From Gammaproteobacteria bacterium (GTDB taxonomy: Bacteria > Pseudomonadota > Gammaproteobacteria > Steroidobacterales > Rariloculaceae): a stretch of 64,000 nucleotides of DNA. The translations under genes and the position numbers were made by a program. Positions 4,738 through 60,741 of the stretch are shown here, piece by piece (the first letter of the stretch is position 1; each line of letters begins with the position of its first letter). A model generated the notes under the pieces. That model saw nothing but the letters and a program-made list of their open reading frames with translations, was not told the DNA's origin and did no database searches. The stretch covers positions 1,288 to 65,287 of the forward strand of contig DASQOL010000004.1 of assembly GCA_035644475.1 (NCBI GenBank), read 5' to 3'.

Positions 4738-4744
4738 CGCGCCG

Positions 4745-9406: not shown

Positions 9407-9434
9407 AAATAGGGACAGGTTACTTTTTCGCGCG
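9405..9434. repeat. Half copy (single arm) of the AT-armed hairpin repeat family
   Basis: GAAAATAGGGACAGGTTACTTTTTCGCGCG matches the family arm GAAAATAGGGACATGTTGCATTTTCG. It is wedged between the TGA of the + gene (9404-9406) and the stop of the - gene (9435-9437). Confidence 0.55.
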
Positions 9435-11396: not shown

Positions 11397-11493
11397 GGAC
11401 ATGTTGCATTTTTCGACGCCGCAGGCTCGGGGCCGGTGGCGCCTCATCGAAAATGCAACATGTCCCCATTTTTCGCTGTCCCCATTTTTCGCG
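11388..11493. repeat. AT-armed hairpin repeat, full copy plus 18-nt arm-end duplication
   Basis: Left arm CGAAAAATAGGGACATGTTGCATTTTTCG (11388-11415), GC-rich core, and right arm CGAAAATGCAACATGTCCCCATTTTTCG (11448-11475). This is followed by a duplicated CTGTCCCCATTTTTCGCG (11476-11493). Confidence 0.8.
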
Positions 11494-18397: not shown

Positions 18398-19231
18398 TCA
18401 GTGCACCGTCTGGCCACGGACCAAATTGTGAATGTCGAGGAGTGGCCGCACGAACTTCTCGAGATCGTCCAAGTAGTACTGGCTCGCGGCGTCGCAGAGC
18501 GCCTCGGGCGGGTTCGGGTGCGCCTCGATGAAGATGCCGTCGACACCAGCCGCCACGCCCGCGCGCGCGAGCGTGTCCAAGAACTGCCGCGCGCCGCCCT
18601 TCGGGTCCTTGCTCGGGATGCCGTACTTGCGGATCGAGTGGCCGATGTCGAACACCACCGGATAGCCGATCTGGCCGAGCAGGAAGAAGCTGCGCGGGTC
18701 GACTATCAGATCGTTGTACCCGAACGTGTAGCCGCGCTCCGTGAGGATGATCTTGCTGTTGCCGCTAGCCTCGACCTTCTGGCACGGCTTGGCCATGTTC
18801 TCGGGCGCGATGAACTGGCCGTGCTTGATGTTGACCACCGCGCCGGTCTTCGCGGCGGCGACCACGAGCTCGCTCTGCATGCAGAGGTACGCGGGGATCT
18901 GGAGCACGTCCACGACCTCGGCCGCCGGCGCCGCCTGATAGGGATAGTGGATGTCGGTGAGGATCGGCAGCTCGAACTCGCGCTTGACCTTCGCGAGCAG
19001 CTTCAAGCCCTCCTCGAGGCCCGGTCCCTGGTAGTAGTCGAGCGAGCTGCGGTTGTCCTTCGAGAACGACGACTTGAAGATGATCGGCAGCTCGAGGTCC
19101 GCGGACATCTTCTTCAGCCGCTCGGCCGTACGCATCATCAGCGGCTCCGCCTCGATCACGCACGGGCCTGCGATGAGGAACATCTGATCGGAGCCGCAGT
19201 CGATGTCGCCGACCATCACGTGCTTCTTCAT
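18398..19231 (-). CDS. kdsA: 3-deoxy-8-phosphooctulonate (Kdo-8-P) synthase
   Basis: Sequence FLIAGPCVIE...FKSSFSKDNRSS...ILTDIH...LQIPAYLCMQS...NIKHGQF...ILTERG..FGYN.L.VD...DI.HS matches KdsA along its full length. Confidence 0.9.
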   Translation of the reverse strand: MKKHVMVGDIDCGSDQMFLIAGPCVIEAEPLMMRTAERLKKMSADLELPIIFKSSFSKDNRSSLDYYQGPGLEEGLKLLAKVKREFELPILTDIHYPYQAAPAAEVVDVLQIPAYLCMQSELVVAAAKTGAVVNIKHGQFIAPENMAKPCQKVEASGNSKIILTERGYTFGYNDLIVDPRSFFLLGQIGYPVVFDIGHSIRKYGIPSKDPKGGARQFLDTLARAGVAAGVDGIFIEAHPNPPEALCDAASQYYLDDLEKFVRPLLDIHNLVRGQTVH

Positions 19232-20601
19232 AGACGGGAGTCCAAGTCGTTGGCAGGTCGCGACATTTTGCGGTCAAAGCGCGGCGCGGGCAAGCGGCGT
19301 CGGGTCAACTCGAGCAGCAACTCGTAGTTGCGGGCGGTCGCGCCCTGCCCCGCACGCACCACCTGCTGCGCGCGGCGGCCGAGCTCGCGCCTGCGCGGCT
19401 CGTCGAGGATGAGCTCGGCGACCGACGCCGCGAGCTCTCGCTCGTCATGCACCATGACGCCGGCATCGGCCGCGAGCAGATCTTCCACCGTCTCCTTGAA
19501 GCTGAAATTGTACGGCCCGAACAGCACCGGCACCGCGAGAATCGCGGGCTCCATCAGGTTATGGCCGCCCTTGTTCGCGCCGCGAAAGAACAAGCTGCCG
19601 CCGACGAACGCGAGATCCGCGGCCGCGTAGAGGCGGCCGAGCTCGCCCACGGTGTCCACGATCAGAATTCCGTCGCGCCCGGGCGGCGGCCGCGCCGCGC
19701 CCACCGCCGACTTGAGCGTCGCCGCGAAGCCGCGCTCGCGCGCGCGCCGCTCCACCTCGGGCGCGTCCTTGGGATAACGCGGAACGACGATCAGCGCGGC
19801 GCGGTCGTTCGCCGCGCGAGCGCGCGCGTACGCGTCGAGCAGCGCCTCGTCCTCGCGCTCGTGGAGGCTGCCCCCGACGATGACGAGGTCCTCCGGCGCG
19901 TAGCCGAGCTCGCCGCGCAGCTCGAGCCTGGCGGCGTCCTCCGCCAGCGGCTGCGCGCTGCGCGGGTGCGGAGGCTGCGTGAGGTCGTACTTCATGTTGC
20001 CGGTCACGCGCATGCGCTCCGCGGCCACCCCGAGTGCCGCGAAGCGCTCGGCGTGCTCCTCCGTCTGCACCGCAAGCAGGTCGATCTGCCGCAGCACGCG
20101 CGGAATCAGCCCGAGCCGCGTGTGCGTGCGAAACGACTTCGGCGACATCTTGCCGTTCACGATCGCCACCGCCGCGCCGTAGCGGCGCGCGCAGCCGATC
20201 AAGTTCGGCCAGAATTCCGACTCCACGATGATCACGAGCCGCGGATCGAGCCGCTTGAGATAGCGCCGCACCACGAACGACAGGTCGAACGGCAGCGGCA
20301 GCACGCGATGCCGGGAGTACAGCTTGCGCGCCGCGGCGAGCCCGGTGGAAGTGAAGGCCGTGATCACGAGCGGCACTTCGGGAAGGTCGCGCTCGAGCAG
20401 CGCGATCAGCGGCTTGAGCAACGAGACCTCGCCCGCCGAAGACCCGTGCAGCCAGATGCTCGCTTCGAGCCGCGGGCCCAAGCTCGCGCCGAAGCGCATC
20501 GCGAGATCGCGCCGGGCGGGGCCCGCGACGAAGCGATAGAGGATCCACGGGGAGAGCACCACGCAAGCGACGAGATAGGCGAAGTCGAGCACGAGCCCCA
20601 T
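19228..20601 (-). CDS. waaA: Kdo transferase, second paralog
   Basis: Sequence WLHGSSAGEVSLLKPLIALL...ESEFWPNL...IVNGKMS...GGSLF.RGANKGGHNLMEP. It has a 4-nt overlap with the kdsA start and is the first gene of the operon. Confidence 0.85.
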   Translation of the reverse strand: MGLVLDFAYLVACVVLSPWILYRFVAGPARRDLAMRFGASLGPRLEASIWLHGSSAGEVSLLKPLIALLERDLPEVPLVITAFTSTGLAAARKLYSRHRVLPLPFDLSFVVRRYLKRLDPRLVIIVESEFWPNLIGCARRYGAAVAIVNGKMSPKSFRTHTRLGLIPRVLRQIDLLAVQTEEHAERFAALGVAAERMRVTGNMKYDLTQPPHPRSAQPLAEDAARLELRGELGYAPEDLVIVGGSLHEREDEALLDAYARARAANDRAALIVVPRYPKDAPEVERRARERGFAATLKSAVGAARPPPGRDGILIVDTVGELGRLYAAADLAFVGGSLFFRGANKGGHNLMEPAILAVPVLFGPYNFSFKETVEDLLAADAGVMVHDERELAASVAELILDEPRRRELGRRAQQVVRAGQGATARNYELLLELTRRRLPAPRFDRKMSRPANDLDSRL

Positions 20602-20625
20602 CGGCCATATTCTAGTCTGGCACTA

Positions 20626-20731
20626 GGGTCAGACCCCAGGGACAGGCTGGGCCAGCGTCGTCGTGCTAGGGTCAGACCCCATCGGCACCGGCGTCGCAGG
20701 CTGCGGCCGCCGCGCGCATGGGGTCAGACCC
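20626..20731. promoter_or_regulatory. Three copies of the perfect 11-bp palindrome GGGTCAGACCC upstream of the Kdo operon
   Basis: Copies lie at 20626-20636, 20669-20679 and 20721-20731, with starts 43 and 52 bp apart. The first two share the longer CTAGGGTCAGACCCC. The sites lie between the EAL gene stop (20735) and the waaA start (20601). Confidence 0.45.
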
Positions 20732-20734
20732 TCG

Positions 20735-22066
20735 TCAGGCTTCGGCCTGCTGGAGCCAGAGCTTCGCGACGGGCATGCGGCGGCTCGCCGTCGCGAGGTA
20801 GTGATCGAGCCACTCGGGAACGAGGTCGCCGCGCATCGGCCGGCCGATGAAGAAGCCCTGCGCCATCTCGCAGCCGATGTCGGTCACGACGGCGAGGTTC
20901 TCGGCGCTGTCCACGCCTTCGGCCACCACGCGCATGCCGAACGCGTGCGCGAGCGCGATCACGGTCTTGACGATCTCCCGATCCTTGTCGTCGAGAGCGA
21001 TCGTGGCGATGAAGCGCTTGTCGATCTTGATCTCGGTCGCGGGGATCTGCTTGAGATAGCTCAGCGAGGAATAGCCCTTGCCGAAGTCGTCGATCGCGAG
21101 CTCGATGCCGAGCTTGCGGACCTTCTCGAGGCACGCGAGGGAAGAATCGTCGCTCTGCACCAAGCTGTCCTCGGTGAGCTCGATCGTGAGGCCGAAACCG
21201 TGCGCGTCGAGCGCCGTCTTGAGCGTGCGCAAGCGCGTGAGGAACTCGCCCTCCACGAGCACCTGCGGCGAGACGTTCACGGCCACGGAGAACGGCTTCG
21301 GCAGCTCCACCCAGTCGGACAGCCGCGCCGCGATCTTGTCGAACACGAGCCAGGTCATCGGCACGATGCTCCCCGAGCGCTCGGCGAGCGGCACGAAGTC
21401 GCTCGCGGGCACGAATCGCCCCGACTGCGTGCGCCAGCGCACGAGCGCCTCCACACCGCAGACGCGGCGTTCTCCGATGTCGATCTTCGGCTGGAAGTAG
21501 ACCTCGAGCTGGTTCTGCTGCACGGCCTGCTGGAGCTCGGTCTCGAACTTCCAGAGCGCGGCCTGCTGCTGCGTCGCGTCGGGCCGGTAGATGTCGAACG
21601 ACAGCTCGTTCTCGCGTGCCTCCTTGAGGGCTAGCTCGGCCCGGCGGAACAACGTCGCCGCGTCGTCGGCATGCGACGGGTACACGGCAACGCCGAGCGT
21701 GAGGTCGACGATGAACGTGTCGGAGGCGACCTTGAGCTGCGGCGGATTGTCCTCGGTGAGGCCGATCGCCGCATCCATGACCGCCGACATCGAGTCGACG
21801 TCGAGCAGCACGGCGAAGCGGCGCTCGGAGAGGCGGATGATCGGGGTCTTCGGCGGCAGGATCTCGCGGAGCCGTTCCGTATAGCCCGTGCAGAACTGCT
21901 CGCACTGCTCGTGGCCGAAGGTCGTGGCGATGCGATTGAACGCGTCGAGCTGACCGAGGAGCAGGCCCGCGAGCCGGCCGTGCTGACCCTGCTTCAGGAA
22001 TTGCTCGATGAAGCGGATGCTGGCGCTTCGGTGCTTGCCCGAACCGGCTTCCTGCTCCGCACCCAC
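20735..22066 (-). CDS. Degenerate-GGDEF / EAL domain protein (c-di-GMP phosphodiesterase-type)
   Basis: The EAL domain is intact (GVEALVRW, ELTED, DDFGKGYSSLSYL, KIDKRFI, VVAEGVDS, QGFF). The upstream GGDEF-like domain has SERRF where GGDEF would be. Confidence 0.85.
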   Translation of the reverse strand: MGAEQEAGSGKHRSASIRFIEQFLKQGQHGRLAGLLLGQLDAFNRIATTFGHEQCEQFCTGYTERLREILPPKTPIIRLSERRFAVLLDVDSMSAVMDAAIGLTEDNPPQLKVASDTFIVDLTLGVAVYPSHADDAATLFRRAELALKEARENELSFDIYRPDATQQQAALWKFETELQQAVQQNQLEVYFQPKIDIGERRVCGVEALVRWRTQSGRFVPASDFVPLAERSGSIVPMTWLVFDKIAARLSDWVELPKPFSVAVNVSPQVLVEGEFLTRLRTLKTALDAHGFGLTIELTEDSLVQSDDSSLACLEKVRKLGIELAIDDFGKGYSSLSYLKQIPATEIKIDKRFIATIALDDKDREIVKTVIALAHAFGMRVVAEGVDSAENLAVVTDIGCEMAQGFFIGRPMRGDLVPEWLDHYLATASRRMPVAKLWLQQAEA

Positions 22067-22277
22067 TCGCGCTCCCGATACCTCTGGCCCGGGAATAATT
22101 TCAACAGAACGCGCCGCGAATGGCTGTGAGCAAGGTCACGACCACAAACCCGGCGTTACGTGCGGCGCCGGTCTCGACCGCCGCCGTCGTCGGTCGGCAT
22201 TTTCTGACCGCCCGCGTCACCCGGCGTTGACATAACCGAGGCCGCGCCAGCAGCGGCGGGGCATCTCGATCGGTGGC

Positions 22278-22628: not shown

Positions 22629-22712
22629 GAAAATAGGGACATGTTGGATTTTTCGGCGGCCCGCCCGGGCGGGGCGGCGCGGTCGAAAGAAATGCAACAT
22701 GTCCCTATTTTC
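22629..22712. repeat. AT-armed hairpin repeat, full copy
   Basis: Sequence is GAAAATAGGGACATGTTGGATTTTTCG, a GC-rich self-complementary core (CCCGCCCGGGCGGGG), then CGAAAGAAATGCAACATGTCCCTATTTTC. It fills the whole gap between two convergent stop codons. Confidence 0.8.
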
Positions 22713-23506
22713 TAGAGGTGGACGGAGGACGGGAGGGACGTCCTGGTCTTCTTGTGGATGATGACGAGCGAATCCTTGAAGCGAATCTCGTCGATCTCGG
22801 CGCAGATGCGGGGCACCGACAACGAAGACAAAGCGTCCTTGTGGCCCCTTCTGAAGAAGGGCTCGCCCGGATGATCGACGTAGTGGCAATGCATGAAGTC
22901 GACCAAGTCCTTGCACAGATCGACGAACGAATACTTCTGATCGCGGAAGCCTTTCCAAAAGTTCGAATGGGTGTCTTCCACGACGTACACGCCGGGATTC
23001 TTGAGGCCCTCCAAGAACAAATGGTTGAAGCTCGCGACCATGTGCGAGCACATGTGACTGCCGTCGTCTAGGATCAGATCGAAAGGACCGAATTCGTCGA
23101 CTAGCCGGCGTACACCCGGGGTGGACTGATCGCCGATCCTGATGTGCACGTTCTCGTCAGGCCGGTCGTATTGCTTGCACGCTTCGTCGATGTCCAGTCC
23201 GACGATCACGGAGTCGGGGTGCAGGTACTCCCGCCACATTCGAACGGAAGAGCCGTTGTAAACGCCGATCTCGAGCAGGCGAATCGGGCGCTTCGCGAAC
23301 GGCGCCAGGACGGACGCATAAGTCTCGAAATAATGCAGCCACTTGTGACCGTTCGGAATTCCCTTCCAGACGCCATAGAGGTCCCGTGGCAAATCGTCGG
23401 GCAACTGCTCGCCGGCAGCCAGGATCCGTGGCGAGAAGAACTCGGCACTCAGGTGCTTACCCGGCCCCCGAGGCGGCCGGTAGCGATATCTCCTCTTGCC
23501 GGCCAC
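22712..23506 (-). CDS. Class I SAM-dependent methyltransferase (HKWxHYF / sugar-or-macrolide O-methyltransferase-like)
   Basis: Sequence GHKWLHYFETY...LLEIGVYNGSSVRMWREYL...GLDID...DLILDDGSH. G+C is visibly lower than in the neighbours. The start is uncertain: there is no in-frame ATG upstream of the domain, so I chose the GTG at 23506. Confidence 0.7.
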   Translation of the reverse strand: MAGKRRYRYRPPRGPGKHLSAEFFSPRILAAGEQLPDDLPRDLYGVWKGIPNGHKWLHYFETYASVLAPFAKRPIRLLEIGVYNGSSVRMWREYLHPDSVIVGLDIDEACKQYDRPDENVHIRIGDQSTPGVRRLVDEFGPFDLILDDGSHMCSHMVASFNHLFLEGLKNPGVYVVEDTHSNFWKGFRDQKYSFVDLCKDLVDFMHCHYVDHPGEPFFRRGHKDALSSLSVPRICAEIDEIRFKDSLVIIHKKTRTSLPSSVHL

Positions 23507-34520: not shown

Positions 34521-35240
34521 TTAAGGTCCCGCGACCCCGGTCGTCACGAGTCGATACCCCGCGCCGCGCACGGTGATCAGGTTGCGCGGCTCTTTCACGT
34601 CGGCCTCTATCTTGCGCCTGAGCTTGGCGATGTGAATGTCGACGGTGCGCGTCTCGATGTCGGCCGTGCGGTCGTAGCCCCACACGCGCGTGAGCAGCTC
34701 GGCGCGCGAGACGGGCCGCTCCGTGTTCGACTGCAAGTATTGGAGAATCTCGATCTCGCGGCGCGTGAACGCGAGCTCCGTCGCGCCGCGGCGCCCGGAG
34801 AGATTGCGCGTGTCGATCTCCACGTCGCCGTCGAGCCGGATCTGCGCCGCGAGCTCCGCGCCCACGCGCGAGCGGCGCAGCACGGCCTTCACGCGCAGCA
34901 CCAGCTGCGCGATCGCAAAGGGTTTGGCGACGTAGTCGTCCGCGCCGAGCGTGAGGCCGTTGACGATGTCCTCGTCGCTCGTCTTCGCGGTGAGCATGAT
35001 GATCGGCTGATCGCGGTCGACCTTGCGAATCTCGTCGCAGATCGAGAAGCCGTCGCGGCCGGGGAGCATCACGTCGAGGAGCACGAGGTCGTAGTGCCCC
35101 GTGAGTGCTTTCGCGAGGCCTTCCTTACCGTCGCCGACGGCGTCGACGCGATAGCCGTGATAGACGAGCACGTCCGCGAGACCGTCGCGAATCGCGGCCT
35201 CGTCCTCCACGACCAGGATGCGGGGCTTCGTGGGCTCCAT
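34521..35240 (-). CDS. OmpR/PhoB-family response regulator
   Basis: Receiver domain (ILVVEDE...DLVLLDVMLPG.DG...LTA) plus a winged-helix output (LT.RE.E.L.YL......V.SR..L....WG). An alternative GTG start is at 35246. Confidence 0.9.
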   Translation of the reverse strand: MEPTKPRILVVEDEAAIRDGLADVLVYHGYRVDAVGDGKEGLAKALTGHYDLVLLDVMLPGRDGFSICDEIRKVDRDQPIIMLTAKTSDEDIVNGLTLGADDYVAKPFAIAQLVLRVKAVLRRSRVGAELAAQIRLDGDVEIDTRNLSGRRGATELAFTRREIEILQYLQSNTERPVSRAELLTRVWGYDRTADIETRTVDIHIAKLRRKIEADVKEPRNLITVRGAGYRLVTTGVAGP

Positions 35241-35276
35241 GCGCACCTAGGCTAGCAGCTAAGGCGCGCGCGCCGT

Positions 35277-35295: not shown

Positions 35296-35310
35296 GCGAC
35301 GTGGATCGCC

Positions 35311-35380
35311 GGAAAATGGGGACATGTTGCATTTTCCGCGGCGGCGCCGCGCGGAAAAGGCAACATGTCCCTGTTTTTCG
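35311..35380. repeat. AT-armed hairpin repeat, short-core copy
   Basis: Sequence is GGAAAATGGGGACATGTTGCATTTTCCG, core CGGCGGCGCCGCG, then CGGAAAAGGCAACATGTCCCTGTTTTTCG. It abuts the stop (35381-35383) of the upstream small ORF. Confidence 0.8.
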
Positions 35381-35647
35381 CTAGCCGCGCGGACGCGCGG
35401 GGGAGCTCGCGACGCGGCTCGCGTGAGCGTTCCGGCCGGCGGCGCGCTCCAGGCTCGCACTAACCGCGTCGAGGTGGCGCGCGACGTCGACGCGCATCGC
35501 CGCACGGTCGATCTCCACGGTCACGACCGGACGCTTGCCGTAGACGACGATCTCGTCCACCGCCTCGTCCGCCCCCGCGTGTCTCGCGCTCAGCAACGCG
35601 CCGGCGGCGAGCAATGCCGCCGGAATATTCCGCCTGTGGGTAATCAA
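35381..35647 (-). CDS. Small exported protein, unknown function
   Basis: TTG start at 35647, preceded by GGAG at a 7-nt spacing. Signal-like (M)ITHRRNIPAALLAAGALLSARHAGA. 88 aa. Confidence 0.45.
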   Translation of the reverse strand: MITHRRNIPAALLAAGALLSARHAGADEAVDEIVVYGKRPVVTVEIDRAAMRVDVARHLDAVSASLERAAGRNAHASRVASSPARPRG

Positions 35648-35784
35648 GGTTGTCTCCTTCCGTTGGAACAATTCGAAGACGGCCCGGTCGTCCCTGACCA
35701 AGCCGGCTGCCGGTGCAATTGCACGTGGCGTGCCACTGTCGGCGGCGAGCATTTAAGCCGAGTTTGATGACAGTTCAACGACTG

Positions 35785-41248: not shown

Positions 41249-44041
41249 CTATTCGTAGCGCAACACGGTCATCGGATCGACGCGCGACGCGCGCCGGGCC
41301 GGAATGTAGGCCGCGCTGAGCGTGACAGCCGCGAGCACCGCGGCGGCCGCCGCCAGTGCGAACGGGCTCCCGGCTTCGACGCCGAACAGGAGGCTTTGCG
41401 CCGCATGGCCGAGGAGCCACGCCGCGCTCGCGCCGAGCACGATGCCCATCACCGCCATCCCCGCCACCTGCCGCAGCACCATCTGGCCGATGCGGCCCGC
41501 CGGCGCGCCGAGCGCAATGCGCAAACCGATCTCCCGCGAGCGCTGCGCGACGGAGTACGCGAGCACGCCGTAGAGACCGAGCGCGGCCAACGCGGTCGCG
41601 AGCACGGCGAACACGACCGAGGTTCCGGCGAAGAAGCGCTCCACTGCGATAATCTCGCGGAATTGCTGCTCCATCGGCTGAAGATTCGCGATCGGAATGG
41701 TCGGATCGACGCGAGTGACGGTATCGCGAATGGCGCTCATGACGTCATCGGACGGCAGCTCACTGCGAACATAGAAGGTCGCTGAGCCGGTGAATACCAT
41801 CCCGCTGGACGCCAGCACGAACATGTGCGGCTCGATCGCGTCGGTGATCTTTCCGATCCTCACGTCTTCGATGACGCCGACGATCTCGAACCGATAGACG
41901 GCCCTGACGGCTCGCCCGATGATGGCGTCGGGGACGAGACCGAGGCGGTCGGCGAATCGCCGATTGACGATCGCCGCCAGCCCGGAGCTGGAGCTCTTCC
42001 TGCCGTTGTCCGTGTCGCTGAGCTCACGGCCCGCGAGCAACTCGATGCCGAACACCTCGACGAAATCGCCGCTGACGAAGTCTAGGGACACCGGAAACTT
42101 TTCGCTCTCCATGTCCTCGACGGCCGCGTCGTAGATCGCCGCCCCCTGGAGCGAGAGCAGAGGACGCGCATTCGACCAAGCCACGGAAGACACGCCCGGG
42201 ATCGCCTCGAGCGCCTCTGCGAGGCGAGGTAGGGAGCTCACGTTCGTGGCTATCCCACCCCGGGGCGGCACGGAGAACATGACGACCGGATCGATATCGA
42301 AGCCGAGATCGAGGCGCGCAACGTTCGCGAGGCTTTGCGCGAAGCCACTCATCGTCGCGAGCAGCGCCATCGCCAGCGCGACTTGCGCCGTCGCGAGCGT
42401 GGCACGGAAGCGCGCGACGCCTTTGACTGTGGTCTGCCTCCCGCCATAGGCCTGCAACGCCTTCCCGGGCTCGGCCCGGATCAGTCCGCGGAAGGGAAGG
42501 AGCCCGACGGCCAGCGCCGACGCCACCGCGACGCCTACGCCCAAGAGCGCCGCTGTTGCGCTCACGCGGAGGTCGGGTGCCGCCGTGGAGATTCCGGGCA
42601 CCCAGCTCGCGCCGCGCAGGATCAACCACGCGACCGGGAGGCTCGTGAGCGCCGCCGGCAGCGCAAGCACGAGCGACTCGGCGAGCAGCAGCGCAGCGAG
42701 GCGCCCGCGCGTCGCCCCGATCGACGAGCGCAGCGCCATCTCGCCGCTTCGTGTGGTCGCGCGGACCAACATGAGCCCCGCGACGTTGGCGCAGCACAAG
42801 AGCAGCACCAAGCCGCTCGCCGCCCACAGCAGCCTAACGCCGTTGCGTGCGGGAGAGAGGATCCGGCTGCTCGTTTGCCCTCGCGCCCCGGGCTCGAGCA
42901 CGAGCGGCCTTAAGCGAAACGCCTCGCGCTCAAGTTCGTCGGCGTCGAGCAGAAGAGGCGCTTCGACGTCGCTTAGGGTAGCGCGATACAACGGATTGAT
43001 CGCGGCCTCGGCCCCTTCGCGAGTGACGCCCGGCTTGAGGCGCGCGAAGAGATGGACCCAGTGCAAGTTGCGACGGTCGTGATTCGGGATGGCCGTCGTC
43101 GCAGCGAAGCCATCGAGGCCACCGGAGAACGAGATCGTGATGGGTACGAACACGCTCGCGCGGGCGCCCACCGCCGTGCCGTGGAACCCGGGTGGCGCCA
43201 CTCCAACGATGGTCAGCGGCACATCGGCGACGAGGAGCGTGCGCCCGAGGACACCCGGATCACCGCCGAATTCGCTCTGCCAGTACGCGTGGCTCAATAC
43301 CACCGAAGTGGCCTGTCCGTCGACGCGATCGTCCTCGGGGCCGAGCAGCCGACCGAGCGCGGGCGGAAGCCCTAGCACCGAGAAGTAGCTTCCTGAAACG
43401 ATAGCCAGGGTCGCAAGCCGCGGACGCTCGCCGGTCGAAAGCGTTGCATCGAAGAAGGTGTGTGCGGCAAGCCCGACGAACGGCTCCTGCCCGCGCTCGA
43501 GATCGCGGAACATCGGGTAGCTGAAGAGGGTTTCGTATTCGCCGCTGGCGGACTCTCGCACCACCATAGACGTCAACGTCACCGGATCCGTTTGGGCACC
43601 CATCTGGACGAACATCTTGTTGGGATCGGTCAAGTTCACGAGGCGGTCCGGCTCCGGTGCGGACAGCGGGCGTAGCAGTGTTTGATCAGTCAGCGAGAAA
43701 ATTGCGACGTTGACGCCGATGCCGAGCGCGAGCGTCAACACGGCGACCGCCGTGAACGTCGGCTGCCGGCGCAGCGTTCTGAACGCATAGCCCGCATCTG
43801 CGATAAACGTTTCGACCGAGCCGAGCGCGAGCCTTTCACGCACGCGGTCTTTCGTTTGCTCCACGCCGCCGAGCTCGATGCGCGCGGCACGCCGTGCTTG
43901 CGCCTCGGTCACGCCGGCGCGCATCTTCTCAGCGGCGGAGCGCTCGATGTAGTCCGCGAGGTCGCTATCGAGCGCTCGCTCGATCTCGCCGCGCCGGAAC
44001 AACCAACGCGCGAGCGCGCGAATGCGGTACAGGATCGTCAT
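41249..44041 (-). CDS. ADOP-family duplicated orphan permease (MacB/FtsX superfamily, 930 aa)
   Basis: The N-terminus MTILYRIRALARWLFRRGEIERALDSDLADYIERSAAEKMRAGVTEAQARRAARIELGG is the hallmark ADOP leader. There are two FtsX modules (GEMALRSSIGATRGRL..., REIGLRIALGAPAGRI...). Confidence 0.9.
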   Translation of the reverse strand: MTILYRIRALARWLFRRGEIERALDSDLADYIERSAAEKMRAGVTEAQARRAARIELGGVEQTKDRVRERLALGSVETFIADAGYAFRTLRRQPTFTAVAVLTLALGIGVNVAIFSLTDQTLLRPLSAPEPDRLVNLTDPNKMFVQMGAQTDPVTLTSMVVRESASGEYETLFSYPMFRDLERGQEPFVGLAAHTFFDATLSTGERPRLATLAIVSGSYFSVLGLPPALGRLLGPEDDRVDGQATSVVLSHAYWQSEFGGDPGVLGRTLLVADVPLTIVGVAPPGFHGTAVGARASVFVPITISFSGGLDGFAATTAIPNHDRRNLHWVHLFARLKPGVTREGAEAAINPLYRATLSDVEAPLLLDADELEREAFRLRPLVLEPGARGQTSSRILSPARNGVRLLWAASGLVLLLCCANVAGLMLVRATTRSGEMALRSSIGATRGRLAALLLAESLVLALPAALTSLPVAWLILRGASWVPGISTAAPDLRVSATAALLGVGVAVASALAVGLLPFRGLIRAEPGKALQAYGGRQTTVKGVARFRATLATAQVALAMALLATMSGFAQSLANVARLDLGFDIDPVVMFSVPPRGGIATNVSSLPRLAEALEAIPGVSSVAWSNARPLLSLQGAAIYDAAVEDMESEKFPVSLDFVSGDFVEVFGIELLAGRELSDTDNGRKSSSSGLAAIVNRRFADRLGLVPDAIIGRAVRAVYRFEIVGVIEDVRIGKITDAIEPHMFVLASSGMVFTGSATFYVRSELPSDDVMSAIRDTVTRVDPTIPIANLQPMEQQFREIIAVERFFAGTSVVFAVLATALAALGLYGVLAYSVAQRSREIGLRIALGAPAGRIGQMVLRQVAGMAVMGIVLGASAAWLLGHAAQSLLFGVEAGSPFALAAAAAVLAAVTLSAAYIPARRASRVDPMTVLRYE

Positions 44042-44067: not shown

Positions 44068-46773
44068 TTATTCGTATCGCAGCACGGTCATCGGATCGAC
44101 GCGCGACGCGCGCCGGGCCGGAATGTAGGCCGCGCCGAGCATGACCGCCGTGAGCACGATGGCGGCGCCGGCGAGCGCGGCGGGGTCGGCAGTCCCAACG
44201 CCGAAGAGTAGGCCTTGCGCCGCGCGACCGAGCAAGACAACTGCGACGACGCCGAGCGCGAGACCCGTCACCGCCATCGTCGCCACTTGCCGAACCACCA
44301 TGCCGCGGATGCGGCTCGCCGGCGCACCGAGCGCGAAGCGCAAGCCGATCTCGCGCGACCGCTGCGCGACCGCGAACGCGAGCACGCCGTAGATGCCGAG
44401 CGCCGCCAGCACGGTGGCGAGCACGGCGAACGCCGAGGACATTCTCGCGACGAAGCGCTCCGTGCCGATGTTCTCGAGGAATTGCTGCTCCATCGTGGCG
44501 AGACGTGTGATCGCCAAGTTGGGATCGACTCGCACCACCGCCTCGCGAACGGCCTTCATCAAGTCCGCGGGCGGGCGAGCGCTTCGAACGTAGAACGTCA
44601 AACCGTGGGAGATCGGCCGAAACACGCGCGGCCCGATGTCGCCGGTGACCTTCCCGAACTGGGCGTCGGCGACCATCCCGACGATCTCGGCGTTGATATC
44701 GCCGATGCGCCGTCCGATCACGCTTCGGCCGAGGCCGAGACGCTCGGCGAAGCGCTGATTGACGATGGCCACCTGCTGCGACGTGTCCGCAGCGCTGAAA
44801 CCGCGGCCCGCGAGCAACCCGATGCCGAACATCTCGAAAAAATCGGAGCTGACGAAGTCCGTGGAAATGTCGAGCGGCTCCGTCTCGAGCCCTTCGACGG
44901 CAACCCTACCCTCCCACCCGCCGACCGAGAGCACGGGAACGGTCGACGAAGCCACGGAAGATACGCCCGGAATCGCCCGGAGCTCCTCGTCCAGTCGATC
45001 GAAGACTCTCGCCGACGCTTCCGGGGAATACCCCGTTGTCGCCAGCGGCGAGATGGAGAACATGACGACCGAGTCGACGTCGAGGCCGAGATCGATGTCC
45101 GCGATGTTCGCGAGGGTACGTGCGAAGACGCCGGTCATGGCGAGCAGCGCCATCGATAGCGCGATTTGCACCGTCGCGAGCGTCATGCGGAAGCGCATGA
45201 CGCCGTGGGACGACGTCTGCCTCGCGCCGTACGCCTGCAAGGCCTTGCCGGGCTCGGTGCGGATCAGGTCCCGAAGGGGAAAGAGGCCGAAGGCCAGGGC
45301 CGACACCACCGCCGCCCCGACTGCCACGAGCATCGCGGCCACGCCGAGCTCGACGTCGAACCCGGTCGTCGGTATGCCGGGGACTCCGCTTGCGATGCCG
45401 CGCAGCGTCAGCAACGCCACCGGCAGACTCAACAGCGCGGCCGGCAGCGCAAGCGCGAGCGATTCGGCGAGCAGCAGCGACGCGATGCGGTGGCGCGTTG
45501 CGCCCATCGACGCCCGCACCGCCATCTCGCCGCTGCGTGCCGCGCCTCGCACCATCATGAGCCCTGCCACGTTGGTGCAGCAGAGCAGCAGCACCGCGCC
45601 GCATACGGCCAACAGCATCTCGAGGCTGTTGCGCGCCGGAACGAGCGTGCGGCTGTGAGTCTGCCCGCGCGCCCCGGGCTCGAGCACGAGCGCTCTCGTA
45701 CGGAACGACTCGAGGTCGTGCTCGTCGACGTTGGTCAACAGAGGCGCTTCGACTTCGTCCACGATCGCGCGATACAGCGGATTGATCGCGGCCGCAGCTT
45801 CTTCACGACTGACGCCCGGCTCGAGGCGTGCGAAGAGATGGACCCAGTACAACAGGCGATTGTCGTGATTCGGGATCAGAGCTCCGGCGTCGCTCGTGAT
45901 CGGCACGAAAACGCTCGCATGTGAGGCGACGGTCGTTCCGTCAAATCCGGGCGGCGCCACGCCGACAATGGTGAGCGGTTTGCCATTGACGATCAGCGCG
46001 CGGCCGAGCACCGCCGGATCGCCACCCAATTCGCTCTGCCAATACGCATGAGCCAATACCACCGACTCGGCCAGCCCGTCGACGCGATCGTCCTCCGGCC
46101 CCAGCAGACGGCCGAGCACCGGTTGAAGTCCGAGCACCGAGAAATAGCTTCCCGAAACGAAGACGCCGGTGGCGAGACGCGCCCGCTCGCCGGTCGAGAG
46201 GCTCGCCTCGAAGAACCGATGCGCAGCCAGCTCGACGAGAGTCTCTTGCGCGCGCTCGAGGTCGCGGAACGTCGGGTAGCTGAAGACCGTGTCGGCCCCG
46301 CCGCTGACGGAGGACGCGGTACTGGCTTGAGACCGCCCGACGATCTTCGGCCCCGGATCGTTCAAATTCACGAGTCGGTCGGGATCGGCCACCGGCAACG
46401 GCCGCTGCAGAAGCTGCTGAAAGAGCGAGAAAAGCGCGACGTTGACGCCGATACCGAGCGCGAGCGTCAACACGGCCACGACCGTGAACGTCGGCTGCCG
46501 GCGCAGCGTTCTGAACGCATAGCCCGCATCGGCGATCAGTGTTTCGACAGGACCGAGCGCGAGCGTTGCACGCACGCGATCCTTCGTTTGCTCCACGCCG
46601 CCGAGCTCGATGCGTGCCGCTCGCCGCGCTTGCGCCTCGGTCATGCCGGCGCGCATCTTCTCCGCGGCGGAGCGCGCGATGTAGTCCGCAAGATCGGTAT
46701 CGAGCGCTCGCTCGAGCTCGTCGCGGCGGAACAGCCAGCGCACGAGCGCGCGAATGCGGTACAGGAAGGTCAT
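44068..46773 (-). CDS. ADOP-family duplicated orphan permease, tandem paralog (901 aa)
   Basis: Same leader (MTFLYRIRALVRWLFRRDELERALDTDLADYIARSAAEKMRAG...). It is collinear with the downstream paralog, and its start overlaps the PadR stop (ATGA). Confidence 0.9.
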   Translation of the reverse strand: MTFLYRIRALVRWLFRRDELERALDTDLADYIARSAAEKMRAGMTEAQARRAARIELGGVEQTKDRVRATLALGPVETLIADAGYAFRTLRRQPTFTVVAVLTLALGIGVNVALFSLFQQLLQRPLPVADPDRLVNLNDPGPKIVGRSQASTASSVSGGADTVFSYPTFRDLERAQETLVELAAHRFFEASLSTGERARLATGVFVSGSYFSVLGLQPVLGRLLGPEDDRVDGLAESVVLAHAYWQSELGGDPAVLGRALIVNGKPLTIVGVAPPGFDGTTVASHASVFVPITSDAGALIPNHDNRLLYWVHLFARLEPGVSREEAAAAINPLYRAIVDEVEAPLLTNVDEHDLESFRTRALVLEPGARGQTHSRTLVPARNSLEMLLAVCGAVLLLCCTNVAGLMMVRGAARSGEMAVRASMGATRHRIASLLLAESLALALPAALLSLPVALLTLRGIASGVPGIPTTGFDVELGVAAMLVAVGAAVVSALAFGLFPLRDLIRTEPGKALQAYGARQTSSHGVMRFRMTLATVQIALSMALLAMTGVFARTLANIADIDLGLDVDSVVMFSISPLATTGYSPEASARVFDRLDEELRAIPGVSSVASSTVPVLSVGGWEGRVAVEGLETEPLDISTDFVSSDFFEMFGIGLLAGRGFSAADTSQQVAIVNQRFAERLGLGRSVIGRRIGDINAEIVGMVADAQFGKVTGDIGPRVFRPISHGLTFYVRSARPPADLMKAVREAVVRVDPNLAITRLATMEQQFLENIGTERFVARMSSAFAVLATVLAALGIYGVLAFAVAQRSREIGLRFALGAPASRIRGMVVRQVATMAVTGLALGVVAVVLLGRAAQGLLFGVGTADPAALAGAAIVLTAVMLGAAYIPARRASRVDPMTVLRYE

Positions 46774-56941: not shown

Positions 56942-56967
56942 GCCTTTTTTAATTGGGGGGGACTCGC

Positions 56968-58440
56968 ATGCGACTACCGGCACGGCTCCTGTTCTGCGCG
57001 TTTGGCATCGCGGTCGCGAATGGTTGCGGGGCGCAGGCGGCGCGTGGGCTGCTCGAGCAGGCGGCCGAGGCGATGGGCGGGCTCGAACGGCTGCGGGGCC
57101 TCGACAACGTCGTGCTGACGGGCTTCGGCGTGTACCTGAGCCAGCAAGGCGGGGGCAATTTGTCGCCCGACGCGCATGCCCCTTCGAAGTGGCAGGAAGG
57201 GAACGCGGCGCGACGCGTCTTCGATCTCAAGGGCAAGCGGGCGCTCTATCAGGATCGGCGCATCTCGATGTTTCCGTTCGCTGCCGCCTCCGGCAACCGC
57301 TGGAGCGAGACGCTGCAAGTGCAAACCGGCGTCCAGGCGCTCGACCATCCGCTCACGGCGCTGCTCGCGGCGCTCGAACCGGGCGCGCGGCTCGGGCCCG
57401 TGCGCACCGAGAACGACCTCGCCGTCGTCGAGCTCACCGTAGCCGACGGCGCGATGCTCTGGATCGCGCTCGACGCGCGCGCCCACCTGCCCGCGTGGGT
57501 CCGCTGGGTCAACGGCAGCGCGACACTAGGCGACGTCACGAGCACGGCGTACTTCACGGGTTACCTGCCGTTCGACGGCGTCGAGCTGCCGACCGGCTTC
57601 AAGACCATGATCGATTGGCGCGATACGACCACGTCGGAGTTCCAGGTCGACTCGTATCGATTGAATGTGCGCGACCTCGAGCCGTTCCCCGCCACGATCA
57701 CCAACTCGCCGCCCGGCGCGACGGCCCTCGCGGTGAAACCGGTGGCGAAGGGCGTGTGGGACGTACGTTATGGCGGCAACGCCGGCGCCGTCGTCGAGTT
57801 CGCCGATCACCTCACGATGTTCGAAGCGTACGGCAGCGAGCTCGCAACGTTCGCGCGGCTCGACGCCGCCAACAAGCTCGTCAAGGGCAAACAGGTGACC
57901 GAGGTCATCGTCTCGCACCATCACTTCGACCACAGCGGCGGCCTGCGCGCCGCGGTGTCGCGCGGCCTCACGATCATCTCGCGGCGCGCGAACGAGGGGA
58001 TCTTCCGCGAGATGGTCGCGCGGCCCGCGCCGAACTTCCCCGACGCGCTCGCGCGCAATCCGCAGCCGATGAAGTTCGTGCCCGTCGACGAGCATCTCGT
58101 GCTCGAGGATAAGACGATGCGCGTCGACGTCTATCACGCGGTGGGCCACCTGCACATGGCCGACGCGGTGTTCGCCTACGTGCCGTCGGTGCGCGTGCTC
58201 ATGGAGGGCGACTTCACGACGTTCGACTGGGATTACAACTGGTGGGGCGGCGCCTACCTCGACAACGTGGCGCGCTACAAGCTCGACCCGGCGATCAACG
58301 TGCCGGTGCACGGCAAGGTCACGACCTTCGCGGAGACGACGGCGGACATCGAGCGGCAAGTCGCGAACGCGCGCAAGTTCTGCACCGACAACGCGGCGGC
58401 CGCCATCTTCACCGCCGGCTGCCCCGTCCCCGGAAAATAG
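56968..58440 (+). CDS. MBL-fold metallo-hydrolase lipoprotein
   Basis: Signal/lipobox FGIAVANGC. HxHxDH motif VIVSHHHFDHSGG. ATG at 56968 after a G-rich RBS. The stop TAG lies inside the downstream repeat arm. Confidence 0.8.
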   Translation: MRLPARLLFCAFGIAVANGCGAQAARGLLEQAAEAMGGLERLRGLDNVVLTGFGVYLSQQGGGNLSPDAHAPSKWQEGNAARRVFDLKGKRALYQDRRISMFPFAAASGNRWSETLQVQTGVQALDHPLTALLAALEPGARLGPVRTENDLAVVELTVADGAMLWIALDARAHLPAWVRWVNGSATLGDVTSTAYFTGYLPFDGVELPTGFKTMIDWRDTTTSEFQVDSYRLNVRDLEPFPATITNSPPGATALAVKPVAKGVWDVRYGGNAGAVVEFADHLTMFEAYGSELATFARLDAANKLVKGKQVTEVIVSHHHFDHSGGLRAAVSRGLTIISRRANEGIFREMVARPAPNFPDALARNPQPMKFVPVDEHLVLEDKTMRVDVYHAVGHLHMADAVFAYVPSVRVLMEGDFTTFDWDYNWWGGAYLDNVARYKLDPAINVPVHGKVTTFAETTADIERQVANARKFCTDNAAAAIFTAGCPVPGK

Positions 58441-58517
58441 GGACATGTTGGATTTTCGACGGCGCGCCCGACGACCCTACGCCGGGTCGCCGAAAATCCA
58501 ACATGTCCCTATTTTCC
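58432..58517. repeat. AT-armed hairpin repeat, full copy
   Basis: Sequence is GGAAAATAGGGACATGTTGGATTTTCG, a GC-rich core, then CGAAAATCCAACATGTCCCTATTTTCC. The arms contain the TAG of the + gene (58438-58440) and the stop of the - gene (58509-58511). Confidence 0.85.
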
Positions 58518-60260
58518 GAGAGCGGCGCGGCGGGCGGCTTCGAACTCGTTGCCGGCATTCCAAACAGGCAATTCCGTCTCGTTCGCGACGATCAGGCCGG
58601 CGTAAAAGCCGAATTGCGCGTCCTGCACCATGCCGTCGAAATTCCATTCGGCGGTGAGCTCGTCGCTCGGCTGGTGATAGTTGCGCTCGGTATAGGCGTT
58701 GACTTGCTCAACGCCCCACTCGGGCGGCCGCCCGACGAAGTCCGTGCCGCCGCTGAAGTAGAACGCCGGCACGCCGATCTTGGCGAAGTTGAACTGGTCG
58801 GAGCGATAGTACGAGCCGCGATCGGGAAACTGATCGGCCTTGAGCGCGCGCTGCTGGAACGCGGCGACCTCGGTCGCGATCGCGTCCAAGCTCGACTTGC
58901 CGAGCCCGATGAAGGTGATGTCGCGCGTCGCGCCCCAGATGTTGCCGCTGTCGTAGTTCACGTTCGCCGCGATCTTGCCCGGGGGAACGGTGGGGTGCGC
59001 GGCGAAGTACTGCGAGCCGAGTAGGCCCTGCTCTTCCGCGGCGGGGAACAGTAGCGCGATCGAGCGGCGCGGCCGTTCCGGCAACGCGGCGAACGCCTTG
59101 CCGATCGCGAGCAGCATGCCGACCCCGCTCGCATTGTCGCGCGCCCCGTTGTAGATCTTGTCGTTCGGGTCGCCGTTCAAATTCGGCGCGCCGACGCCTA
59201 GATGATCGTGATGCGCGCTGTAGATCACGACCTCGTCGGCGGCCGTGGCGTCGCTGCCTCGCAGAACGCCGAGCACGTTCGCGGATTGCGTGCGCGTCAC
59301 GCTGTTGCGCAGCGTGAGCGACGTGGTGATGCCGAGCGGCACGGGCACGAAGTCGCGGCGGCTCGCTTGCTTTACGAGGCCGTCGAGATTGCCCGCGGGC
59401 CCGAGCAGGCGCCGCGCCGCGTCCTCCGTGATCCAGGCTTCGATTTGGACGCGGGGCTCGTCTCCCGCCGGCAAGTGGAACTGCGCGCCGCCCCACGACG
59501 CCTGCACGACCTGCCACGGATATCCCGCGGACGGCGTCGTGTGGACGATGATCGCACCGGCCGCCCCGTGCCGGGCCGCGCTCTCATATTTATAGGTCCA
59601 GCGCCCGTAATAGAGACGCTCGGTGCCCGCGAACAGCGCCGGATCCCAGTCGGGATCGTTGTTGAGCATCACGAGCACCTTGCCGGCGACGTCGACGCCC
59701 TTGAAGTCGTCCCAGCCGTACTCGGGCGCCTCGATGCCGTAGCCGACGAACACGAGCTCGGCACTTGCGATCTCGGTGCGGGGCGTCTGCACGCCGCTCG
59801 CGGCGATGTAGTCGGCGTTGCGCTTGAGGTCCACGTGCTCGCCCTCGCGGACGAAACGCCACATCGTGGGCGGCGTCGACGTCACGCCCACGAGCTCGAC
59901 CGGCTGCTCGTAGCTGCCGTTCGCCGCGCCCGGCTCGAAGCCGAGCGCCTTGAGCTCGCCCGCGAGGTATGCGCGTGCGCGTTTGTCGCCCGGCGTACCC
60001 GGCGCGCGGCCCGCGTAGCGGTCGTCGGCGATCTCGGCGACGACGCGTCGAATGTCCTCACCCGTGATCGCGCCGGCGGCCTCTTGCGCGGAGCGCGCAA
60101 TCCGCAACGGCGCGACGGGCGCCGGCGGCGAAGCCGCGGCCGGCGCAGCCGCCGGCTCGGTCGCGGGCGCGGGCGGCGGACCGAGCTCCTGCGGCTGCTC
60201 GCGCTCGCAACCGCCGAGCAGCGGCAGCAAGAGGAGCAGCAACGGGAGCGCGAGCCGCAT
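58509..60260 (-). CDS. M28-family aminopeptidase with PA domain (lipoprotein)
   Basis: Lipobox LLGGC. Sequence VVIYSAHHDHLG...NGARDNASGVGMLLAI...FPAAEEQGLLGS shows the M28 zinc-ligand motifs. Confidence 0.85.
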   Translation of the reverse strand: MRLALPLLLLLLPLLGGCEREQPQELGPPPAPATEPAAAPAAASPPAPVAPLRIARSAQEAAGAITGEDIRRVVAEIADDRYAGRAPGTPGDKRARAYLAGELKALGFEPGAANGSYEQPVELVGVTSTPPTMWRFVREGEHVDLKRNADYIAASGVQTPRTEIASAELVFVGYGIEAPEYGWDDFKGVDVAGKVLVMLNNDPDWDPALFAGTERLYYGRWTYKYESAARHGAAGAIIVHTTPSAGYPWQVVQASWGGAQFHLPAGDEPRVQIEAWITEDAARRLLGPAGNLDGLVKQASRRDFVPVPLGITTSLTLRNSVTRTQSANVLGVLRGSDATAADEVVIYSAHHDHLGVGAPNLNGDPNDKIYNGARDNASGVGMLLAIGKAFAALPERPRRSIALLFPAAEEQGLLGSQYFAAHPTVPPGKIAANVNYDSGNIWGATRDITFIGLGKSSLDAIATEVAAFQQRALKADQFPDRGSYYRSDQFNFAKIGVPAFYFSGGTDFVGRPPEWGVEQVNAYTERNYHQPSDELTAEWNFDGMVQDAQFGFYAGLIVANETELPVWNAGNEFEAARRAALGK

Positions 60261-60279
60261 CGAAAGCGGCGCCGCGCGT

Positions 60280-60741
60280 TCAGCCGACCACATGCAGACT
60301 CAACCACTCCGCGACGAGCGCGGGCTTCTCTTCGTTCTCGATCTCGATCGTGACGTCGACCTTCACGATCACGTTGCCCGGCTTGCGCTCCTCGACGCCC
60401 AACAGTTTGACCCGCGCGCGGATCCGCTTGCCGACCTTCACCGGCGCGGAGAAGCGGACCTTGTCGAAACCGTAGTTCACGACGAGCTTCGTGTCGGCGA
60501 GCTTCGGGATGAAGATCAGGCAGAGGTGCACGATCATCGACAGCGTCAAGAGTCCGTGCGCAATCGTGCCGCCGAACGGCGTGGCGCGCGCGCGCTCGGG
60601 GTCGACGTGCAGGAACTGGTGGTCGAGCGTGACGTCGGCGAAGTCGTTGACGCGCGTTTGCTCGATCAGAAACCAGTCCGACACGCCAAGGGGCTCGCCG
60701 ACCTGTTTCTCTAGCTCCTGCCGTGTGACCGTCCCTGCCAT
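60280..60741 (-). CDS. MaoC-like (R)-hydratase/dehydratase
   Basis: Sequence DFADVTLDHQFLHVDPERA......GGTIAHG.LTLS is the hot-dog fold hydratase motif. ATG at 60741. Confidence 0.85.
   Translation of the reverse strand: MAGTVTRQELEKQVGEPLGVSDWFLIEQTRVNDFADVTLDHQFLHVDPERARATPFGGTIAHGLLTLSMIVHLCLIFIPKLADTKLVVNYGFDKVRFSAPVKVGKRIRARVKLLGVEERKPGNVIVKVDVTIEIENEEKPALVAEWLSLHVVG

Follow-up and report, generated by a model that had tools for sequence, protein, structure and literature searches.

What kind of element is the AT-rich inverted repeat at nucleotides 58431 to 58518 of the stretch of DNA considered here, and what might it do for the two genes whose stop codons both lie inside its arms? The stretch, hereafter the window, comprises 64,000 nucleotides of contig DASQOL010000004.1 (assembly GCA_035644475.1), from an uncultured soil gammaproteobacterium of the family Rariloculaceae. 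It corresponds to a soil metagenome contig in ENA (ERZ27253147 k141_1314383, 64.9 kb). For three of its proteins, the nearest named homologs, all labeled 'MAG TPA: Gammaproteobacteria bacterium', are 83–100% identical, and the match at 100% spans all 264 amino acids of the protein; related assemblies are GCA_036274615.1 and GCA_035706425.1. A preliminary description assigned this repeat, termed here the 58432 copy, to a hairpin family with AT-rich arms and GC-rich cores at five loci. The hairpin sequences are present at the coordinates given for them, and the family is genuine and dispersed. Its best explanation, with a probability of roughly 0.6, is a family of ~85-bp non-autonomous palindromic repeats that resemble REPINs and miniature inverted-repeat transposable elements (MITEs) and act as bidirectional intrinsic terminators.

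A dispersed family of hairpins

The 26-nt arm consensus has eight matches in the window at up to three mismatches, compared with 0.00 expected from 100 shuffles, and the 11-mer GGGACATGTTG likewise has eight, compared with 0.46 expected. An nhmmer arm profile built from copies outside the window recovers exactly nine arms, the number first claimed, and also picks up a 15-nt outer-arm fragment (Table 1). In total, the window has four complete hairpins plus a solo arm and an arm fragment, at a density of about one arm per 7 kb. The arms were said to be conspicuously AT-rich, which is borne out for their A/T runs given the ~68% GC of the window. Folding energies of the four full copies are −51 to −72 kcal/mol, with z-scores of −6 to −10; the 58432 copy reaches −66 kcal/mol on the + strand and −72 kcal/mol on the − strand, with z about −10. 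The region of the solo arm (9395–9445) does not form a stable fold (−8.1 kcal/mol, z = +0.83), and 157 of 200 shuffles fold as well.

Further copies were obtained from Joint Genome Institute (JGI) metagenomes. An exact-match scan with one 23-nt A arm (the arm subtypes are described below) returned 63 loci, almost all of which derive from three related soil samples. At 37 of the 63, the 23-mer is also matched exactly by the partner arm, which the query did not include. Together, the window and the 63 loci contain 75 full hairpins, 66 of them distinct, and about 10 solo arms; the metagenome scan contributed 62 more distinct full copies. One JGI contig, L031, carries the 58432 copy itself and is 100% identical to the window across 1.7 kb.

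Arms and cores

The elements are 69–96 nt long, with a sharp mode at 85–86 nt. The arm is laid out as CG-A(4-5)-TA-GGGACATGTTG-[G/C]A-T(4-5)-CG. Positions +1 to +10 are essentially invariant, which is partly a retrieval effect, and TA flanks GGGAC...GTCCC in about 95% of arms. The sole palindromy within one arm is a weak GAAAAT...ATTTTC dyad. Complementarity between the two arms spans positions −9 to +22, with a stem of 27–31 bp, and extends 3–4 nt past the A/T runs in sequence that varies from copy to copy (CTAG/CTAG, CCGG/CCGG, GCTG/CAGC, CCCG/CGGG). Inverted-complement flanks outside the A/T runs are found at 1, 2, 3 and 4 nt in 54, 42, 31 and 14 of 62 copies, respectively.

The arms of a copy were reported to covary, on the basis of TTGGA/TCCAA in the 58432 copy and TTGCA/TGCAA in the 11388 copy. 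Both pairs are as described, and the family as a whole shows concordance: the two arms agree at position −6 in 85% of cases (54% under independence), at position 12 in 88% (48%) and in the length of the inner T run in 92% (56%). RNAalifold finds 27 consensus pairs, 8 of which are changed on both sides. The claim does not extend to every copy, however, as only two of the four full copies in the window have fully concordant arms. The mismatches are at position 12 or 13, with GGA versus GCA in the 22629 copy (at position 12, one of its arms also having the odd inner end GCATTTCTTTCG) and GCA versus GCC in the 35311 copy. In addition, an identical uncompensated mismatch (TTTGA opposite TCCAAC) recurs in about eight independent loci, which shows that arm states are inherited from source copies. 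Arm matching was taken as an argument that the hairpin is selected or that each copy arose by arm copying. It does not require selection on each single hairpin, because arm states are inherited and because recombination between arms can homogenize them without selection.

The cores are 76% GC and exceed shuffles only slightly in structure (mean z = −0.41 ± 0.14), which points to weak selection for core structure. That they differ completely is true among the four copies of the window but not family-wide, where there is a fixed modal length and where homologous core pairs occur. Fifty-two core pairs have a normalized alignment score of at least 0.35, compared with 0–2 in GC-matched controls, and nearly all of the flanks are unrelated. 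Examples are L061:5332 and L066 (0.77), L022 and L027 (0.69), and L031, i.e. the 58432 copy, and L049:5524 (0.67). Two core-related copies are on one contig, 2.7 kb apart. Because core pairs are shared at unrelated loci, whole units, core included, must have been copied to new loci. The cores are thus not the independent sequences they were first thought to be; units are duplicated with their cores and inserted in one step.

Position at gene ends and predicted termination

A gene 3′ end lies within 60 nt of 55 of the 66 copies. By nearest-gene context, 27 copies are convergent, 24 co-directional, none divergent and 15 unresolved; these counts are approximate, the gene calls being crude (long open reading frames with high third-position GC). 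Of 68 adjacent gene ends, 29 stop at the arm's own TAG (AAAATAGGG) and 13 at a TGA that overlaps the arm's first GA, and a stop codon overlaps the arm at 62% of these ends. The M28 peptidase gene beside the 58432 copy has orthologs in contigs L072, L073 and L074 that likewise end at an arm TAG. Every family arm either lies between genes or overlaps a stop codon. No family arm was found within a gene away from its stop, and near-matches to the 11-mer in genes are without arm context.

On both strands, the element reads GAAAA(A)UA-GGGACA...UGUCCC-UAUUUU(U)C, i.e. a stable stem with a G+C-rich base, an A run on the 5′ side and a U run on the 3′ side. RNA transcribed from either side would form the 27–31 bp stem on a GGGACA/UGUCCC base, which would provide a terminator plus a 3′-end protector. 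The element thus probably stops transcription from both sides. The terminator role had been raised in the preliminary description; the confinement to gene 3′ ends, the frequent convergent contexts, the lack of divergent ones and the sequence layout all fit, and the role itself is a prediction from sequence. If the elements are terminators, copies would be tolerated, and perhaps kept, between convergent or co-directional genes and never in promoter regions. The near-invariance of the arms would follow if a trans-acting protein, most likely a mobilizing enzyme encoded elsewhere in the genome, must recognize them. Recombination from arm to arm would keep the arms matched; the core would be free to drift. 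Ordinary terminator-like sites show no excess in the window (14, 13 and 11 found, 9.8, 11.4 and 11.7 expected).

Insertion and inversion

Comparison with relatives that lack the insertion was proposed at the outset; it yielded one clean empty site. The locus of the 22629 copy is empty in the relative L084 (76% protein identity), where the convergent stops overlap in the palindrome CTAG, with CACCTCTAG on one side of the junction and TCGCTGTGG on the other. The empty junction reads CTCTAG/TCGC, the slash marking the junction, and its right side continues as TCGCTG. Relative L083 (84% identity) and the window have a unit of ~84 nt, including the A and T runs, exactly at that site, with CTAG on both sides; the right junction of the window reads CTTAG. 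This comparison with the empty site places the A/T runs within the insert, and it shows that the whole unit was inserted in one step. Either a duplication (of 4 nt or of TA) or an insertion at the center of the dyad could account for the event. Among the 62 copies compared, direct repeats are present at the flanks only where the flank itself is palindromic, and TA or CTAG is found outside the A/T runs in only 3–4 of them.

Between the window (22629–22712) and L083:2176–2259, the interior of the element, including the odd arm end, is inverted, and identity is 88% once one copy is flipped. This inversion between orthologous copies argues that arms recombine with each other, and the end-to-end flip was likely caused by recombination between the element's own arms. 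Such recombination offers a way to matched arms without selection on each copy. Evidence for hypermutability of the element is not firm: near-identical strain pairs show four differences compared with 1.4 expected (p = 0.05), all at one locus.

Arm subtypes and turnover

Three arm subtypes, A, B and C, have the outer part AAAATAGGGACA in common and differ in the inner part. Subtype A, TGTTG[G/C]ATTTTCG, is dominant in the DNA examined, which was retrieved by A-arm matches. Subtype B, GGTTACTTTTTCG, is represented by 18 arms, many of them solo, and includes the distinct solo arm at 9405 in the window (GGGACAGGTTAC). Subtype C, GGCTGATTTTTCG, is found only in relatives. The M28 peptidase gene ends at an A element in the window, at a C element in L072 and L073 (89% protein identity), at a B element in L074 (83%) and at none in L075 (78%). 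At the 3′ end of a gene encoding 343 amino acids, the window has an A element plus the outer-arm fragment, L076 (92%) a solo B right arm, L077 (85%) a decayed C element and L078 (84%) none. The solo B arm of L076 is at the position of the window's fragment, which is either an older type-B right-arm remnant or a 16-nt tandem duplication.

About eight composite loci consist of a solo B arm, 5–25 nt and a complete A hairpin, beyond which no second B arm follows. New copies are thus often situated within or next to older ones, and the subtypes replace one another at the same addresses in different lineages. Complete A copies beside stranded B arms suggest that new copies home into old ones. New units would land in or beside older units, and leftovers would then be deleted between the direct repeats so created, i.e. 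the outer-arm sequence common to the subtypes and the motifs CGAAAAA/TTTTTCG, which are present at both ends of each arm. The same deletions would yield solo arms. Landing plus deletion is, we infer, the simplest account of the turnover.

The solo arm at 9405 has the sequence of an arm that makes a full hairpin in L074, L044 and L055. In contig P0125 of a relative (JGI 3300048101), genes at 3384–4436 (+) and 4523–5356 (−) match those around the solo arm. The gap between these convergent genes is 86 nt in P0125, the size of a full hairpin, as opposed to 28 nt in the window, which suggests that the solo arm is the leftover of a full hairpin.

A bolder scheme would make the repeat a self-homing palindrome: each subtype would insert into or next to its predecessor, gene-end addresses would be rewritten lineage by lineage, the arms would be read by an enzyme, perhaps a TIRYT-like HUH protein, with a (G)GGGACATGTTG specificity that crosses phyla, and the host would be supplied with terminators and stops. 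This scheme is speculative and improbable. If it were true, the repeat and its host would form a long-lived partnership in which addresses are kept, unlike ordinary scattershot transposition.

Search for the mobilizing enzyme

No transposase was found beside or between copies, as had been noted for the window, in a search that covered ~0.8 Mb of DNA. In this DNA, tblastn with 10 published RAYT and TIRYT proteins (PMC3733652, Additional file 5) gave a best E value of 0.22, tblastn with an E. coli RayT sequence gave no match and a scan for the HUH...Y..NP motif gave 0 matches. An autonomous parent was sought between close element pairs, beside solo arms and in the span from a solo arm to a full copy in L036, and only housekeeping genes were found there. 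No transposase-sized gene is bracketed by a pair of solo arms, and no full-length element with the same ends and an encoded transposase was found in the examined DNA, plasmids or viral contigs. A first guess, given the absence of a consistent direct target duplication, is an HUH tyrosine transposase like RAYT or TIRYT; this absence may favor HUH enzymes that act on single strands over most DDE transposases.

Distribution outside the window

The statement that the repeat belongs to no named family is upheld by Rfam, which gave 0 matches to the whole window at gathering scores. A search of Rfam with the element at E ≤ 10 found only generic microRNA-precursor hairpin models, far under their thresholds. 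A BLAST search of plasmids with the element gave no match, three scans of viral contigs gave only chance matches in AT-rich phages, and a full-text literature search for the 11-mer returned unrelated primers only. A scan for GGGACATGTTG-N25-55-CAACATGTCCC in one genome per species (185,579 species) found only seven loci, which are in metagenome-assembled genomes (MAGs) of Planctomycetota, Polyangiales and Nannocystaceae; none has the arm flanks of the window.

Two Planctomycetota MAGs have hairpin families of their own, with (G)GGGACATGTTG between A/T-rich runs (CCGAAAAAGGGGGACATGTTGAATATCGACA, TTGAAATTCGGGGACATGTTGKGCAATTGC). These are at L001:5623–5697, L007:4116–4258, L003:1778–1851 and 3307–3360, and L006:4156–4209. 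Their cores are conserved inside each MAG, and L007 has two direct solo arms shortly upstream of the full hairpin. Some element-bearing JGI contigs (L009:1700–2600, L036:1276–1989) encode DUF1592/DUF1588/DUF1595 and DUF1554 proteins, whose domains are best known from Planctomycetes. Given these proteins, the metagenome loci may not all derive from the organism of the window.

Contig L032, compared with L034, has two stretches of ~2 kb that are 95% identical with many gaps and lie side by side in opposite orientations. It resembles a fold-back mis-assembly. The hairpin copy at L032:1340–1422 is within one stretch, away from the junction near 3200. Palindromes such as this copy may seed assembly artefacts.

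Relation to known repeats

The preliminary description held that the repeat is not REP, BIME, ERIC or Correia. This is correct at the family level, but the kind is a known one, that of REPIN/MITE-like small palindromic intergenic repeats. The repeat is a new family of this kind, outside any named family. In the palindromic-unit literature, Gilson et al. in 1987 reportedly described species-specific sequence at conserved positions, a trait in common with the present family.

REP-type repeats are found mainly between co-directional and convergent open reading frames, downstream of genes (PMC3733652). Hairpins are formed by REP doublets that enclose a spacer, and singlets are what is left of such doublets (PMC3116915). 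The REP tag is defined as an unpaired GTAG (or CGTC) at the end of the unit (PMC3733652). Like REP, BIME and REPIN sequences, the elements described here are high-copy extragenic palindromes that have two conserved inverted halves and a more variable spacer, and form a long hairpin. As with REPs and REPINs, doublets outnumber singlets, and many solo arms are degenerate or belong to the minor subtype B. The contexts are extragenic and co-directional or convergent, consistent target duplication is lacking, and there are subfamilies with a master-like structure. Unlike the REP unit, which is an imperfect palindrome of 20–40 bp, the single arm is not a self-folding palindrome, as seen from the solo arm above. 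There is also no unpaired GTAG/CGTC tag; ATAG is present in 95% of copies and is paired with CTAT of the other arm, and GTAG occurs in few. In further contrast to REP, each arm has two A/T-rich ends, in a genome that is GC-rich, and no RAYT was found in the ~0.8 Mb searched.

Terminal inverted repeat (TIR) families described by Di Nocera et al. 2013 are long inverted repeats that flank RAYT-like TIRYT genes (PMC3733652). The TIRs linked to TIRYTs are moderately abundant, occur as dimers or clusters in Xanthomonadales and Acidobacteria, and are unrelated to GTAG REPs; several have the motif GGGGWSAS in common (PMC3733652). In a comparison by motif, GGGGACAG, the form of the B arm that has G at position 0, fits fully. 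The dominant A arm, (A/G)GGGACAT, matches 6–7 of the 8 motif positions, and no arm-flanked TIRYT gene is present in the ~0.8 Mb.

A second repeat family, GGGGTCAGACCCC, also fits GGGGWSAS exactly. It is at 20626–20732 in the window, between − strand genes 19228–20622 and 20735–22135, and consists of four GGGGTC(A/T)GACCC(C) copies in ~110 nt. The near-palindromic 12-mer is also present in 22 metagenome loci and is sometimes directly beside a B- or C-like arm (L011:1203, L039:2077); nucleotides 20642–20655 of the window read AGGGACAGGCTGGG.

Correia elements act as terminators and as RNase III substrates, and they duplicate a TA target. MITEs of the Correia/NEMIS type are small and gene-adjacent, have inverted ends of roughly 26 bp, and are transcribed into hairpins that affect neighboring mRNAs (PMC3733652). 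With stems of 27–31 bp and sizes of 69–96 nt, the present elements are MITE-like (MITE criteria are TIRs of 15–30 bp and a size of 70–300 bp). In contrast to MITEs, whose interiors are normally conserved, the core evolves fastest here; there is also no regular direct duplication, and no parent insertion sequence was found in the DNA searched.

The Neisseria DNA uptake sequence (DUS) and the Haemophilus uptake signal sequence (USS) occur as inverted pairs at gene 3′ ends, with a conserved motif, a variable loop, terminator function and lineage 'dialects'; their density is roughly one per kb. The present repeat differs in that it is inserted as an entire unit, its motif does not occur in coding sequence and the density is about ten times lower. 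Integron attC sites carry RYYYAAC at their 5′ and GTTRRRY at their 3′ end and form co-oriented cassette arrays beside an integrase. An attC identity was rejected, as here GTTG lies in the 5′ arm and CAAC in the 3′ arm, the opposite order, and the copies are dispersed, half of them between convergent genes. A sigma-54 promoter was set aside on inspection, the GG and GC elements being 2 nt too close, as were dif/Xer, parS and Noc sites on spacing or sequence.

Alternative explanations

Several points weigh against a mobile family of terminator repeats. No transposase of any kind was found in the ~0.8 Mb examined, which is only part of the genome. The U run is short, with 4–5 U residues after UA, and a simple terminator scanner did not flag the copies, its loop limit of 3–8 nt excluding them by design. 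A terminator needs no particular stem sequence, and function alone leaves the invariance of the arms unexplained; as this invariance exceeds what a terminator needs, a sequence-specific partner is called for. Arm conservation is, moreover, inflated by the retrieval of loci through exact arm matches, and loci L009–L071, which originate from three JGI samples, may belong to more than a single related genome. The junction evidence is one empty site with an ambiguity of 4 nt. The central 22 nt of the cores are only ~2 standard deviations more alike than GC-matched genomic 22-mers. A single ancestry for all cores, which appears strong when measured against mononucleotide shuffles, is not secure on this comparison, and common descent is secure only for clusters of cores.

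Among the alternatives, a classical MITE is unlikely but has the most to commend it. The repeat would then be a deletion derivative of a DDE insertion sequence, e.g. one that is IS5-like or IS630-like and targets CTAG or TA; the 26-bp arms would be its TIRs, the element would be purely selfish, and its position would reflect tolerated insertions or the occurrence of TA or CTAG at stops in a 68% GC genome. The size and the 26–31 bp inverted ends fit, CTAG forms the only empty site that could be resolved and flanks the insert on either side, TA adjoins GGGAC...GTCCC in nearly all arms, and stop codons overlap the arm at most adjacent gene ends. The TA next to GGGAC is not a duplicated target, however, since the A/T runs are part of the insert at the empty site, and TA or CTAG is rarely found outside these runs. 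A general direct target duplication is also lacking, as the flanks are inverted complements that give direct repeats only when palindromic. No pair of solo arms brackets a transposase-sized gene, and the cores drift far more than MITE interiors usually do.

If the arms were instead recognition sites maintained by the host, e.g. a DNA-uptake signal with lineage 'dialects', or else a site of the nucleoid or recombinase type, in inverted pairs that double as terminators, then subtype turnover would be molecular drive and not transposition. The sequence-specific invariance of the arms, well beyond the needs of a hairpin, would be explained, as would the lineage-specific subtypes at the same orthologous loci and the presence of the 11-mer with A/T-rich flanks in hairpin families of Planctomycetota MAGs. 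This is nevertheless very unlikely: the 84-nt unit arrives at an empty site whole and in a single step, unit length is fixed, paralogous cores are shared, no family arm is inside a gene away from a stop, there is only ~1 arm per 7 kb, and, at composite loci, an intact A unit lies next to a B arm, with no gradual conversion. Unrelated intrinsic terminators that are alike by convergence or chance would also be at gene 3′ ends and have GC-rich centers, but this explanation is refuted by the sequence identity of the arms, as 26-nt arms are identical across dozens of loci where 0 are expected. Subfamilies also share mismatches, paralogous cores are shared and insertion polymorphism exists.

Features of the window

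The coordinates of the copies are given in Table 1.

Table 1. Members of the hairpin family in the window, with the arms recovered by the nhmmer profile and the stop codons they contain or adjoin
Feature	Position	Strand	Remarks
Solo left arm, subtype B (GAAAATAGGGACAGGTTACTTTTTCG)	9405–9430	+	In 28-nt gap between convergent genes; overlaps TGA stop 9404–9406
Full type-A hairpin (11388 copy)	11387–11475		Arms 11387–11414 and 11448–11475; TAG 11394–11396 of gene 10365–11396 in left arm
Outer-arm fragment	11477–11491	−	CGAAAAATGGGGACA on − strand, TGTCCCCATTTTTCG on + strand
Full type-A hairpin (22629 copy)	22629–22712		Arms 22629–22654 and 22690–22712; between convergent genes, stops TAA 22626–22628 (+) and CTA 22712–22714 (−)
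Short-core type-A hairpin (35311 copy)	35310–35380		Arms 35310–35338 and 35352–35380; core 13 nt; adjoins stop CTA 35381–35383 of − strand gene 35381–35752; upstream of response-regulator gene 34521–35246
Full type-A hairpin (58432 copy)	58431–58518		Arms 58431–58458 and 58490–58518, perfectly complementary; core 58459–58489, GC-rich
TAG stop, metallo-beta-lactamase-fold gene (56953–58440)	58438–58440	+	Inside left arm of 58432 copy (AAAATAGGG)
TAG stop (CTA on + strand), M28 peptidase gene (58509–60293)	58509–58511	−	Inside right arm of 58432 copy

The metallo-beta-lactamase-fold gene is absent from L072, L073 and L074, where the M28 gene and its hairpin are directly followed by an HDOD gene. 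This difference in gene order reflects a gene-sized insertion or rearrangement with one edge exactly at the 58432 hairpin.

The window also encodes ADOP-family permeases, TonB-dependent receptors and Kdo transferases. Three paralogous genes for ADOP-family duplicated permeases are at 136–2610, 41249–44041 and 44068–46773, the last two adjacent. Two Kdo transferase (WaaA-like) paralogs are within 5 kb of each other (15345–17138 and 19228–20601), and the first has an N-terminal extension of ~155 amino acids in the open reading frame as called.

Implications

If the repeats are mobile terminators, one repeat family would supply a sizeable share of the lineage's clear hairpin-plus-U-run terminators, especially between convergent genes. 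Many genes also take their final codons and their stop from the repeat. Rearrangements are likely to break at the identical 26-bp arms, the beta-lactamase-fold gene adjoining one copy only in this lineage, and the arms are a hazard for metagenome assembly. The general picture of REP and MITE biology is unchanged. The replacement of subtypes at orthologous gene ends, with half-replaced intermediates visible, provides a clear natural record of the turnover of a repeat family, and a tractable case in which to ask whether palindromic repeats home into their own kind.

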